Of a stretch of DNA of 64,000 nucleotides, positions 11,306-15,340 are shown piece by piece; within the stretch, counting starts at the first letter, position 1, and the number at the start of each line of letters is the position of its first letter. This DNA is from a virus. The translations under genes were made by a program, and so were the position numbers. The notes below the pieces were generated by a model. It was not told where the DNA came from. It did no database searches and saw only the letters and a list, made by a program, of their open reading frames with translations. Location: positions 26,896 to 90,895 of IMG/VR virus record IMGVR_UViG_3300013126_001527, one strand, 5' to 3'.

Positions 11306-12142
11306 ATGCAAATTACAGCAGAACATATTCAATCATTATTTCCAAAATACAAATACCCAGCAGACCTAGCAGAAGCACTAACAGAATCATTTGACAAGTA
11401 TGATATTAATACTGTTAATCGTGCCGCTGGTTTCTTGGCACAGTGCGGACATGAAAGTGCAGGGTTTACAGTATTGCAAGAAAACCTAAACTATTCAGCC
11501 GACGGGTTGAACAAAATCTTTAAGAAGTATTTTCCAACAGTGGCAGATGCACAACCATATGCTCGTAATCCAGAAAAGATTGCTAACAAGGTATATGGTG
11601 GGCGTATGGGCAATGGTCCAGAATCTAGCGGTGATGGTTACAAATTCCGTGGCCGTGGCGCTATCCAATTAACTGGTCGTGACAACTATACACAGTTTGC
11701 CAAGGCAGTAGGCCTAACCGTTGACGAAGCAGTAGCAGACTTAGAAACACTTGACGGTGCTATTGAATCGGCATGTTGGTTCTGGCAGAAAAACGGACTT
11801 AACGCTATCTGTGATGCAGACGACGTTGTTAAAATGACCAAACGTATCAATGGTGGAACCATCGGCTTAGAAGATCGCAAGAAACACTACGAACATGCTA
11901 AACATGTATTAGGTGGCAGTCATGTAGAAGAATCACACGGTGTTAGTGTAACCACATACGAAACAGTACGTGTTGGCTCTAAAGGTGAAACAGTCAAAGC
12001 TGTGCAGGCTGCACTGGGGCTAACAGCAGATGGCGCATTTGGGCATGGCACAGAAAAAGCAGTTAAAGCATGGCAAACTAAAAATGGCCTTACAGCAGAC
12101 GGCGTAATGGGTCCTAAGAGCCTACAAAAACTATTAGGATAA
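11306..12142 (+). CDS. Endolysin: GH19 domain plus C-terminal peptidoglycan-binding domain
   Basis: FLAQCGHES, ENLNYS, FRGRGAIQLTG, TKRINGG; PG_binding_1 repeats ADGAFG and ADGVMG. Confidence 0.92.
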   Translation: MQITAEHIQSLFPKYKYPADLAEALTESFDKYDINTVNRAAGFLAQCGHESAGFTVLQENLNYSADGLNKIFKKYFPTVADAQPYARNPEKIANKVYGGRMGNGPESSGDGYKFRGRGAIQLTGRDNYTQFAKAVGLTVDEAVADLETLDGAIESACWFWQKNGLNAICDADDVVKMTKRINGGTIGLEDRKKHYEHAKHVLGGSHVEESHGVSVTTYETVRVGSKGETVKAVQAALGLTADGAFGHGTEKAVKAWQTKNGLTADGVMGPKSLQKLLG

Positions 12143-12145
12143 TCT

Positions 12146-12601
12146 ATGTTCTTACTACATTTTTTACCGGATAGTTTCTTACAAACAGTAATCAACATTG
12201 TACTTTTCTCAGGGTTAGGGTTAACTGTAGTGGGTTTTTTCCTAGCAGGATGGATTCCAGGTGCACGCAATTATAAGTCACTTATTCAAATCTTAGGTGT
12301 TACACTATTAGCCGCTGGTATCTACTGGAAGGGTGGCTACGGTGTTGAAATGGAATGGCGTGGCCGAGTAGCTGAACTTGAGGCTAAACTAAAAACAGCA
12401 GAAGAAAAATCACAACAGGTCAATACCGTGATTGAAACCAAAGTAGTTACACAGGTTAAACATATCAAAGATACACAGGTTAAGATACAAAAACAAATTG
12501 TCGAACGAGAAAAGATTATCAACGGTGAATGTGAAGTTCCAGCAGAGGCTATTGAGTTGCTAAACAAAGCTGCTGAACGTCCAACAGGAGAAAACAAATG
12601 A
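12146..12601 (+). CDS. Inner-membrane spanin-like protein
   Basis: N-terminal TM helices, coiled coil and late Cys; directly follows the endolysin. Confidence 0.6.
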   Translation: MFLLHFLPDSFLQTVINIVLFSGLGLTVVGFFLAGWIPGARNYKSLIQILGVTLLAAGIYWKGGYGVEMEWRGRVAELEAKLKTAEEKSQQVNTVIETKVVTQVKHIKDTQVKIQKQIVEREKIINGECEVPAEAIELLNKAAERPTGENK

Positions 12602-12993
12602 GTAATTCAATTAACAAATATATCAAACTATTCGAAGAAGAATTAGCAGGACTGCGTGCTGTTGGCGTATCAGAGCCAGAGGATTCAGAAGAGTCTTCAT
12701 TGCCCGAAGTCAACATTTCATTCCAGCATGATACGGATAATAGCCCTAAAAAATCCGTAATGGTCAACGCAGGTGGAATATACACCGGTGATGCCAACGA
12801 TCTGCGTGATATACTACACGACATGAACGTTCCAATCCCCGACGAAGATGCTCAACCAAACGATTCGGGTGTTTGGGTCAGCGTAGATGAAAACGGTAAG
12901 AGAATCACAGCAATGGCAGATAATGAAAAAGGTGACGAACTGTTAGCTATGTTAAAGAACGCCGGCTTATATAAAGGTGGGCCAGATGCGTAG
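12598..12993 (+). CDS. Hypothetical acidic protein inserted in the lysis cassette
   Basis: 131 aa; N-terminal KYIKLFEE and C-terminal LLAMLKNAGL. Confidence 0.65.
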   Translation: MSNSINKYIKLFEEELAGLRAVGVSEPEDSEESSLPEVNISFQHDTDNSPKKSVMVNAGGIYTGDANDLRDILHDMNVPIPDEDAQPNDSGVWVSVDENGKRITAMADNEKGDELLAMLKNAGLYKGGPDA

Positions 12994-13243
12994 TTTATTA
13001 CTGGTCTTGCTACTTTCAGGTTGTTCAACGCTAGTTCCTGTTAAGGCTAAGTTTCCGGAACTACCCAAAGAGTTGGCTATTGAATGTCCAGACCTAAAAC
13101 AACTACCACCAGATACTAAAAAGCTAAGTGATGTAGTCAGCAACGTAAGTGAAAACTACGGTACCTACTATGAATGCCAAGCACGTAAAGAAGCATGGGT
13201 AGAGTGGTACAAGGCACAGAAACAAATCTACGAGAGCAACTAA
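12986..13243 (+). CDS. Outer-membrane spanin (Rz1-like lipoprotein)
   Basis: Lipobox LLLSGC, Pro-rich mature region, Cys pair. Confidence 0.7.
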   Translation: MRSLLLVLLLSGCSTLVPVKAKFPELPKELAIECPDLKQLPPDTKKLSDVVSNVSENYGTYYECQARKEAWVEWYKAQKQIYESN

Positions 13244-13853: not shown

Positions 13854-13889
13854 TAAATATTATTATAATAATCAACAAGGAGTAAGACA

Positions 13890-14180
13890 ATGGCAAAAAC
13901 AGCAGAAGAACGCACATCAGATTGGATGACCACCAAGTGGCGTCCGTTAATGGCAATCACATACATGGCAACAATTTGGTTTGATTTTATTCTTGGACCA
14001 GTTGTTTTTAACGTATTACAATATTGGAATCCGGGTCAGGCGATTACTAGTTGGACAGCACTAACACTACAAGGTGGTGGTTTATATCACATCTCTATGG
14101 GTGCTATTCTAGGTATTGCGGCTTGGACACGTGGCAAGGAAAAAGTAGCTGAATTAGAAAACGGTGGCGCGGGAAAATAG
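13890..14180 (+). CDS. Holin (GTA 3TM-holin-like family)
   Basis: 96 aa; KWRPLMA; two hydrophobic helices; GAILGIAAWTRGKEK; AAGGAG RBS; at the end of the lysis cassette. Confidence 0.7.
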   Translation: MAKTAEERTSDWMTTKWRPLMAITYMATIWFDFILGPVVFNVLQYWNPGQAITSWTALTLQGGGLYHISMGAILGIAAWTRGKEKVAELENGGAGK

Positions 14181-14422
14181 CAGGGTACGAAACAGCCCCT
14201 GAGCAAAATGTTTCAACAGAACCGCAATGGATTGTTACAGATAGCAGCCCAGCGGACAATGTGTCAGTGACTGCACCTGTTGAAGCTGCTGAATCAGAGG
14301 TTGAAGTTCCTGAGGTAGCTGAAACACAAGAATTGTATGACGCACCTGAGGTAGCTGAAACTCCTCAACAGCCCAAAATAGCAGAAGATCCAAATCGTCC
14401 AAAAAGACGTAAAAAATCTTAA
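14171..14422 (+). other. Programmed -1 frameshift site (G GGA AAA) and 81-codon holin extension
   Basis: Heptamer 14171-14177 lies directly before TAG. The -1 frame is open 14153-14422 with no ATG and fills an otherwise empty 240 nt gap. Confidence 0.7.
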
Positions 14423-14445: not shown

Positions 14446-14478
14446 TAAAAGGGTAAGCATTGACGCTTACCCTTTTTT
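14446..14478 (+). terminator. Intrinsic terminator
   Basis: AAAAGGGTAAGC-attgac-GCTTACCCTTTTTT hairpin with T tract. Confidence 0.8.
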
Positions 14479-14488
14479 ATTATATAAT
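14460..14488 (+). promoter_or_regulatory. Sigma70 promoter for dnaJ
   Basis: TTGACG-17-TATAAT; the -35 box lies in the terminator loop. Confidence 0.75.
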
Positions 14489-14497
14489 ATACTTACT

Positions 14498-15340
14498 ATG
14501 GCAAATGCGTATGAAACATTGGGTGTGCCTAAAGGGGCATCCGAAGAAGAAATTAAAAAGGCTTACCGCAGACTAGCGGCTAAGCATCATCCCGATCGCG
14601 GTGGAGATACTGCTAAGTTCCAAGAGATACAGGGTGCTTATGAAACTCTTACAGATCCACAAAAACGTGCGGCTCATGACAATCCGGGTTTTAATCATGG
14701 CTCTGGCGGATTTGAGTTTCACTTTGGTTCTGGTATGGATCCTAATGATATCTTTGGTCAATTTTTTAATCAACAACAAGGATTTAATCCGTTTCACCAA
14801 CAACGCCAGCAACAACAGCGTAGAAATAAAGATCTACGCATAAACATCAACATCTCTTTAAAAAGCACATTAAATTCTCAAACTAAAACAGTTAGTGTAC
14901 AAACCACCAAAGGTGACAGATTTACTGTAGATGTTCAGATTCCTCGAGGTGTAACTAACGGAACTACTATTAAGTATTCTCGTATGGGGGACAACTTTTT
15001 TGAATCATTGACACGCGGCGACTTATATGTTATAATCAACATACAAACTGATGGTCGATTTGAAATCTATGGGCACAATGTTGTTACTAACTTAACTATT
15101 AACAGTGTTGAGGCAATGTTAGGCACAGAAAAAGAAATACAAGGCGTAGAAGATAATACATTTTTAGTTAAAATACCGCCAGGAACACAGTCGGGTTCAA
15201 AATTTGGTCTTCAAGGTCAAGGATTGTATGACCCTAGGGGCGTAATGCGTGGGGATTTAATTGTTACACTTACAATTAATACTCTTATTCCAACCGAGGA
15301 ACAAATTATCAAATTGAGAGAAATTTGGCCCAATCTATAA
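14498..15340 (+). CDS. dnaJ: DnaJ/CbpA-type co-chaperone without zinc finger
   Basis: J domain with HPD, G/F-rich linker, C-terminal domain with RGDL. Confidence 0.9.

Follow-up and report, generated by a model that had tools for sequence, protein, structure and literature searches.

The timing of lysis is central to the fitness of a phage, and a holin and its regulator are classically produced either from dual translation starts or from separate genes. In phage lambda, the tail chaperone forms G and GT arise by -1 frameshifting on the heptamer G_GGA_AAG (Xu, Hendrix & Duda 2004, cited in PMC3091744), and RNA structures after the frameshift sites of tail-chaperone genes have been reported to be rare (PMC3091744). 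A literature search returned no frameshift described for the holin family PF11351 and no report of programmed ribosomal frameshifting (PRF) in a holin gene, frameshifts being found only in tail-assembly genes or near holins; the nearest mention concerns phages of Streptomyces cluster BI2, in which predicted frameshifts fall in genes close to holins (PMC9671017). Both -1 frameshifting and holin isoforms are well known, and no published report of their combination was found by full-text search. Here we analyze a holin-family gene at positions 13890-14422 of a 64,000-nucleotide (nt) stretch of DNA, referred to as the window, which makes up the right-hand 64 kb of an uncultured virus contig 90.9 kb long (IMG/VR record IMGVR_UViG_3300013126_001527). 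Comparison with relatives makes it very likely that this single gene, situated in the lysis cassette of a giant phage, is decoded in two ways, namely as a short membrane protein and as a longer form that carries an additional tail after a -1 slip. The window resembles jumbo phages, as judged from distant gene homologues in the Phosso, Atu_ph07 and PA5oct group.

The zero-frame open reading frame (ORF) closes with GCG GGA AAA TAG, and thus, as a first-pass annotation had read from the sequence, an X_XXY_YYZ heptamer stands directly 5' of the stop codon. The elements of the gene are:

13890..14180, plus strand: zero-frame ORF of 96 amino acids (aa), the short form, with two hydrophobic segments, belonging to the holin-family group
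14171..14177, plus strand: slippery heptamer G_GGA_AAA in X_XXY_YYZ phase
14178..14180, plus strand: zero-frame stop TAG ("shifty stop"), abutting the heptamer
14177..14422, plus strand: -1 frame extension of 81 codons plus TAA, which joined to 13890-14177 gives the 177-aa long form
14302-14325 and 14338-14361, plus strand: direct repeat, two copies of 24 nt (17-nt exact core) at 36-nt spacing

The -1 frame is closed by a TGA at 14150-52, 8 codons upstream, and then stays open for 81 codons to the TAA at 14420-22; the claim that it contains no ATG held on checking, the first start-like codon being a GTG at tail codon 29. The encoded tail is acidic (net charge about -10) and Pro-rich, carries a conserved EPQW motif and has the basic end DPNRPKRRKKS, while the direct repeat at 14302..14361, the spacing of which was confirmed to keep the -1 frame, encodes PEVAET twice in this frame. 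The 10-mer GGGAAARTAR does not occur above chance in the window (0.5 expected, with at least one occurrence in 42% of shuffles), and since finding it in 64 kb is by itself unremarkable, its significance comes from comparative evidence.

Relatives were collected from a scan of IMG/VR (44 related loci) and from a scan of JGI/ENA metagenome contigs (78 related loci); they originate from dozens of independent assemblies, and the records with a named title are marine metagenomes. A locus was regarded as split when its membrane-protein ORF was short (75-97 codons as matched), which yielded 18 IMG/VR and 51 JGI/ENA metagenome loci, 69 in total, making 47 distinct 60-nt junctions. The central proposal of the first-pass annotation, a programmed -1 frameshift at G_GGA_AAA that gives a 177-aa form, is strongly supported by these relatives, as the conserved heptamer and the open -1 frame that it had asked for in homologous loci were both found. 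An in-phase G_GGA_AAA or G_GGA_AAG is present at the homologous place in 69/69 split loci. The zero-frame stop abuts the heptamer in 36 of the 47 distinct junctions and is located 3 or 9 nt further on in the others, and the heptamer is retained where the stop has moved downstream by these distances (L022, L014, L052, L061). The distinct tails number roughly 59, 15 from IMG/VR and 44 from metagenomes, and all but one are open in the -1 frame. The 15 IMG/VR tails are free of stops in the -1 frame, against 3-12 stops in each of the two other frames, range from 62 to 93 codons with many indels, all of them in frame, and have no ATG, GTG or TTG in their first 23 codons (0/15), those of L011 and L022 having none at all. 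Complete tails from both sources end in DP(N/S/D/T)RPxRR(K/V)K, with one exception. The ratio of non-synonymous to synonymous substitution (dN/dS) of the tail is 0.48 in the -1 frame, versus 0.79 and 1.30 in the control frames; over the last 12 tail columns it is 0.27 in the -1 frame, and for the membrane core it is 0.12. A search of a 5.8-billion-protein set identified 317 clusters of the family, and among the best 120 there are 80 short clusters (≤100 aa), 61 of which end in GK and 10 in QG, the endings dictated by the slip site. Maintenance of the -1 ORF by purifying selection is hence strongly supported by the comparison. Among 50,697 phage records, blastn with the region gave no match, and tblastn recovered only distant single-ORF homologues, at ≤34% identity, in jumbo phages (Sinorhizobium phage Phosso, Agrobacterium phage Atu_ph07 and the Pseudomonas PA5oct group); neither search of the phage records revealed the split form in a cultured phage.

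Downstream of the heptamer, the first-pass annotation had pointed to a small CAGGG/CCCUG stem, which is indeed the minimum-free-energy hairpin; as the stimulator, however, the small stem alone gives way to a predicted H-type pseudoknot, composed of stem 1 and a second stem formed by its loop:

14181..14201, plus strand: stem 1, with the core GGG 14183-85 pairing with CCC 14196-98
14189..14194, plus strand: 5' arm of stem 2, GAAACA, within the stem 1 loop
14209..14214, plus strand: 3' arm of stem 2, UGUUUC, pairing with GAAACA 14189-94

In the window, CAGGG 14181-85 with CCCUG 14197-201 is an alternative register of stem 1, and GAAACA/UGUUUC is the window's own variant of stem 2. The pseudoknot begins 3-5 nt 3' of the heptamer, and the G-run of stem 1 is kept constant at 4-5 nt. 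The structure of canonical -1 signals is typically placed 5-9 nt past the heptamer, and the spacing of the G-run corresponds to the standard geometry. An explicit search found that in 45/45 distinct junctions a 5-7-nt stretch of the loop is complementary to a stretch 9-11 nt past the C-run. Stem 2 was assessed on an alignment of 44 distinct sequences, with 500 shuffles and slid partner columns as controls: 96.5% of cells are paired versus 86.6% in shuffles (reached by 0/500) and 37-62% in slid columns, and the covariation score is 0.316 versus 0.133 in shuffles (again reached by 0/500). Both-sided changes occur in 5/6 pairs, as exemplified by positions with 33 GC and 10 AU, with 31 AU and 13 GC, or with 33 CG, 7 AU and 2 GC. 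The pairing haplotypes include GGAACA/UGUUCC, GAAACA/UGUUUC, GGAGA/UCUCC, GAAGA/UCUUC and GGUGCUU/AAGCAUC. On either arm, these changes alter the amino acid encoded in the -1 frame, with for example Glu/Gly paired with Ser/Pro, hence protein constraint cannot explain the pairing. RNAalifold on 15 sequences returned only the invariant GGG/CCC hairpin with zero covariation and missed stem 2 because pseudoknots are outside its predictions, the z-score of the single-sequence fold is weak (-1.3), and a search of Rfam found no known frameshift element, only sub-threshold chance matches on the terminator. An upstream Shine-Dalgarno (SD)-like stimulator (GGTGG/AGGTGA) was considered as well and rejected, as it is not conserved across junction types. 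Comparison with relatives shows that heptamer, spacer, pseudoknot and -1 ORF are conserved and under selection. The shift is accordingly supported by four lines of comparison, namely the in-phase heptamer, the maintained -1 ORF, the covarying pseudoknot and the in-frame homology of the tail, the last of which comes from relatives with a single ORF.

Single-ORF relatives of 150-191 aa carry the tail motifs in frame with the membrane core, G(Y/F/W)GTAPEV..QPQW(I/V/L) following immediately on the core and DPNRPKRRKK closing the protein. The same tail is found in the loci L012, L025-27, L059, L073, L080, L104 and L108, and in the protein clusters P0062, P0070, P0073, P0082 and P0083. The G_GGA_AAR heptamer is absent at the site from the single-ORF relatives, and in L012, as compared with L011, 10 extra nt at the junction (1 modulo 3) fuse the frames. 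Comparison with these relatives shows the tail to be the genuine C-terminus of the family, and the comparative evidence together with the in-frame tail makes it very unlikely that the split reflects an assembly error or a remnant in decay, or that the tail is a gene with an initiation of its own. As a side observation, the post-core region of P0063 (150 aa) is Ser/Thr/Cys/Arg-rich and unlike the other tails; it looks like tail DNA read in the wrong frame, perhaps owing to an indel variant or a misassembly. In another set of single-ORF relatives, the L030 group, the tail differs and the GGG..CCCC element is missing.

The polarity of the module appears to be reversed in L012, L017 and L021/L089 (L021 is identical to L089), which have a long single ORF with an in-phase G_GGU_UUU 5 nt before the pseudoknot. 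The -1 frame of L012, L017 and L021 reads GGG UUU UAA, so that a slip would meet TAA at once, and the reversed-polarity stem 2 also covaries (GGUGCUU/AAGCAUC). Relatives with only long forms exist too, and only short forms are found in L042, L044-46 and PA5oct. As both polarities occur among relatives, selection appears to keep both forms, which suggests that the production of short and long form is what is preserved; if both are selected, the frameshift efficiency may be substantial, since otherwise the two polarities would give opposite ratios. The tree of the N-terminal domain is poorly resolved and intermixes split and single-ORF forms (the fewest changes are 4, and starred branches force 1), with single ORFs as outgroups.

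In the proposed mechanism, most ribosomes would read GGA AAA and terminate at TAG, giving the 96-aa protein with two transmembrane (TM) segments, while a fraction would move one base back on G_GGA_AAA and decode 81 further codons to give the 177-aa protein. The slip could proceed by tandem re-pairing to GGG AAA or by a P-site slip of tRNA-Lys with the stop codon in the A site, and would be aided by the downstream H-type pseudoknot. The long form would then consist of the shared membrane core and a cytoplasmic, acidic and Pro-rich tail, which is probably disordered and has a basic RRKK end. Owing to the shared core, short and long forms could co-assemble in the membrane at a ratio set by the efficiency of the slip, and this ratio would tune the timing of the membrane lesion and the release of the cytoplasmic GH19 endolysin. 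In lambda S, the charged cytoplasmic C-terminus tunes lysis timing, and by analogy the tail would modulate the time of lesion formation. The first-pass annotation had proposed the long form as an antiholin or scaffold; since relatives are long-only, short-only or reversed, an inhibitory role cannot be presumed for either form. That selection acts on the short:long ratio of a holin, produced as holin and timing partner by a portable module of heptamer and pseudoknot that is wired both ways, to extend or to truncate, is a tentative proposal, to which we give slightly less than an even chance.

The assignment as a holin draws on the protein and on its neighborhood. The short form has hydrophobic segments at about 19-45 and 58-79 and an isoelectric point of 8.1; the loop between the segments is without charged residues and a K/R-rich stretch follows the second TM segment, a pattern suggestive of an N-in/C-in topology. 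The long form ends in RPKRRKKS. Invariant positions are D32, in the first segment, and H67, in the second. An AlphaFold2 model of the single-ORF relative L012 consists of two long helices and a tail without secondary structure (mean predicted local distance difference test score 51), and lends weak support to two helices followed by an unstructured tail. M13 lies 12 codons after M1 and no SD-like sequence precedes it; separately, Met13 (13926-13928) is nearly invariant in the family (EDWMTxKWRP). The "holin" family phrog_3427 (best E 3.6e-9) and PF11351, GTA_holin_3TM (best E 1.2e-8), are matched by 20/21 members, which match no other family, and many database clusters of the family already carry PF11351. 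The surrounding cassette includes:

11306-12142: GH19/PG_binding_1 endolysin, with no export signal and no TM segment
12146-12601: 151-aa i-spanin-like protein, with N-terminal hydrophobic segments and a coiled coil, matching Rz-like spanin families
12977-13243: LysC/Rz1-like lipoprotein, o-spanin
13877..13882, plus strand: SD-like AAGGAG, 7 nt 5' of the ATG of the holin-family gene, as read from the sequence
14447..14486, plus strand: intrinsic terminator (located at 14447-14476 in the direct reading of the sequence), with a 12-bp stem and a T-run 3' of it, 25 nt past the stop of the -1 ORF

A second lipoprotein gene and a 68-aa ORF are also part of the cassette upstream of 13890-14180. Among relatives the gene order of endolysin, i-spanin-like gene, LysC/Rz1-like o-spanin gene and then holin-family gene is kept, and the linkage persists although the neighboring proteins are only 40-90% identical, L047 and L044 included. 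The endolysin, being without an export signal, needs a holin to leave the cytoplasm. Taken together, remote homology to PF11351/phrog_3427 and the synteny of the lysis cassette make it probable that the gene product is a holin. The terminator, which the first-pass annotation had rightly placed just past the -1 ORF, follows this ORF rather than the zero-frame stop, and no terminator-like sites were seen between 14180 and 14420.

Some further features of the region were recorded. The Rz-like match of the 12146-12601 protein starts from residue 46 only, with an extra hydrophobic segment N-terminal of it, and the protein could be either an extended i-spanin or a second protein that forms membrane lesions. 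An acidic 131-aa ORF (12598-12993) without a Pfam or PHROG match separates the i-spanin-like gene from the o-spanin gene; it has no counterpart in the 44 IMG/VR relatives, the two spanin genes of which adjoin, and looks like an insertion specific to the phage of the window. A near-consensus sigma-70-like promoter (14460-14488; TTGACG, 17 nt, TATAAT; 11/12 matches) overlaps the terminator just 5' of a DnaJ-like gene (14498-15340), and DnaJ and ClpA-like genes come after the lysis cassette in nearly all close relatives. A search of the 64-kb window for tRNA genes found none.

Several observations weigh against a frameshifted holin gene, the first of them concerning its family and function. The window protein scores 21.6 bits against PF11351, the cut-off of which is 24.8, and matches positions 57-96 of 123, that is the last two of the three TM segments of the profile; with its two hydrophobic segments in place of three, and given the sub-threshold score and the partial coverage, it is best regarded as a relative of PF11351 rather than a full member. 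The homologue in PA5oct is listed as a "structural protein" from electrospray ionization tandem mass spectrometry (ESI-MS/MS) of the virion, and the homologues in Phosso and Atu_ph07 are not beside lysis genes but near tail-fibre and ligase genes. On the side of the signal, stem 1 is invariantly G-C and has no covariation signal of its own, and it also encodes conserved Gly and Ala/Thr-Pro codons. The pseudoknot persists in single-ORF relatives without the canonical heptamer (L025 and L059 types), and in one split relative, L101, an in-frame TAA (GGGGTATAAACAG) interrupts the otherwise intact tail at its codon 5. Finally, both the occurrence of the shift and its efficiency are inferred.

Two of these cases deserve additional description. 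In the single-ORF relatives just mentioned, L025 (L025:3001-3573) and L104 carry CCU UUU AGU, and L059, L073, L080 and L108 carry UCU UUU AGC, such that a U_UUU followed by a -1-frame UAG lies 6 nt before the G-run. A slip of tRNA-Phe that meets the UAG may represent a third, non-canonical wiring of the module, which is suggestive only, because the re-pairing in the P-site would be poor. The other case, L101 (L101:973-1100, Ga0172372_10001476), is the only split relative with a broken tail; its other ~72 codons and the end DPNRPARRKKK are intact, its stem 2 still pairs (AAACA/UGUUU), and the TAA may stem from a sequencing error or from a nonsense mutation that arose very recently.

The rival explanation that survives best accepts the frameshift and questions the function, so that the gene would encode an inner-membrane protein other than a holin, for example one with a virion-associated, superinfection-exclusion or lysis-accessory role. 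Besides the Pfam score under the cut-off and the Phosso and Atu_ph07 homologues outside lysis cassettes, it draws on the listing of the PA5oct homologue (L003:3001-3327, gp306, EST35_0306, 108 aa), which fits poorly with a pure holin role, and on the 151-aa protein at 12146-12601, which with its N-terminal hydrophobic segments could itself be the holin. However, the latter protein matches Rz-like spanin families from residue 46 on, the 20/21 members match holin families and those only, the linkage to endolysin and spanin genes is kept over neighbors that have diverged down to 40% identity (L047, L044), and an endolysin without an export signal needs a holin, all of which makes this alternative unlikely, if the most serious of those considered.

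Far less probable is a gene fission, in which the tail would be a separate gene that is translated by re-initiation or from a non-canonical start into a free 80-aa acidic peptide. Some relatives do have an SD-like GGTGG or AGGTGA a few nt 5' of the junction, and the codon with which the -1 frame of the window continues past the site is AUA; yet the post-site codon varies (AUA, GUA, ACC, ACA, AUC) and is not a conserved near-cognate start, junctions of the GAAGC type are without an SD-like element, and two tails are devoid of any ATG, GTG or TTG. Moreover, the phase of the heptamer and a covarying pseudoknot at PRF spacing serve no role in re-initiation, and the tail is fused to the core in single-ORF relatives. 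There is likewise very little chance that the frames are joined by transcriptional slippage, by which RNA polymerase would add an A in GGGAAAA and thereby generate an mRNA subpopulation with fused frames. An added A would yield the same protein, and the window does have a run of four A, but in many relatives the sequence is GGGAAAG, with three A, and in the reversed forms it is GGGTTTT, and no homopolymer at the site exceeds 3-4 nt. Polymerase slippage is known from far longer runs than these, and a covarying RNA pseudoknot 4-5 nt downstream is a hallmark of ribosomal slippage. The possibility that the split is an indel from assembly or sequencing, or an old frameshift that left an untranslated remnant, would be in keeping with a junction in a short homopolymer and with the stop in the L101 tail, but is refuted, as far as comparative data allow, by the recurrence of the split in 69 loci, which derive from dozens of independent assemblies and present 47 different junction sequences, and by tails that stay open through many in-frame indels, keep their end motifs and have their lowest dN/dS in the -1 frame.

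If programmed frameshifting in this holin-family gene is true, recoding would join the established routes to a holin and its regulator, and the programmed frameshifting of tailed phages would extend beyond tail chaperones and capsid proteins. With the two forms acting as holin and timing partner, the arrangement would represent a new, C-terminal, elongation-level counterpart of the dual-start holin/antiholin pairs, widespread in uncultured giant phages of fresh water. Its signal is compact, comprising a heptamer, a 5-nt spacer and a small H-type pseudoknot, and the natural variants of both polarities are ready controls for relating the isoform ratio to lysis time. Gene callers mark the 96-aa ORF only, which leaves ~240 nt apparently non-coding, and the source-named clusters among the 317 are all called "hypothetical protein" but one, which has an unrelated name; the annotation of this abundant freshwater phage group is hence systematically incomplete.

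One of the closest described systems is the lambda G/GT tail chaperone, with which the locus shares the heptamer (G_GGA_AAG in many relatives, G_GGA_AAA in the window), a slip near the end of the upstream ORF, a C-terminally extended product made at a fixed ratio, and an arrangement kept across phages with diverged proteins. It differs in that the gene encodes a membrane protein of a lysis cassette, that the stop usually abuts the heptamer, that a covarying H-type pseudoknot follows the site, and that the proteins have no sequence relationship. L012, L017 and L021 are reminiscent of E. coli dnaX (tau/gamma; A_AAA_AAG), as the long product is the default and a slip before an RNA structure truncates it, whereas the slip of the window extends the protein, the heptamers are G_GGA_AAR or, in relatives, G_GGU_UUU, no conserved upstream SD stimulator was found, and the structure is a pseudoknot rather than a long hairpin. 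In T7 10A/10B, a -1 slip near the end of the ORF also extends a fraction of a self-assembling protein, but this is a capsid protein with another slip site and no lysis role. With PF11351/phrog_3427, which include the holins of Rhodobacter gene transfer agents, the family has significant profile similarity over two TM segments, while it differs in having only two hydrophobic segments and in matching the C-terminal two thirds of the profile. The dual-start holins (lambda S105/S107, phage 21 S68/S71) likewise derive two forms with a shared TM core from one gene at a ratio set by translation; they use two close starts that give N-terminally different forms, an organization that the window gene does not have, as its two products would differ C-terminally by 81 residues through recoding during elongation.

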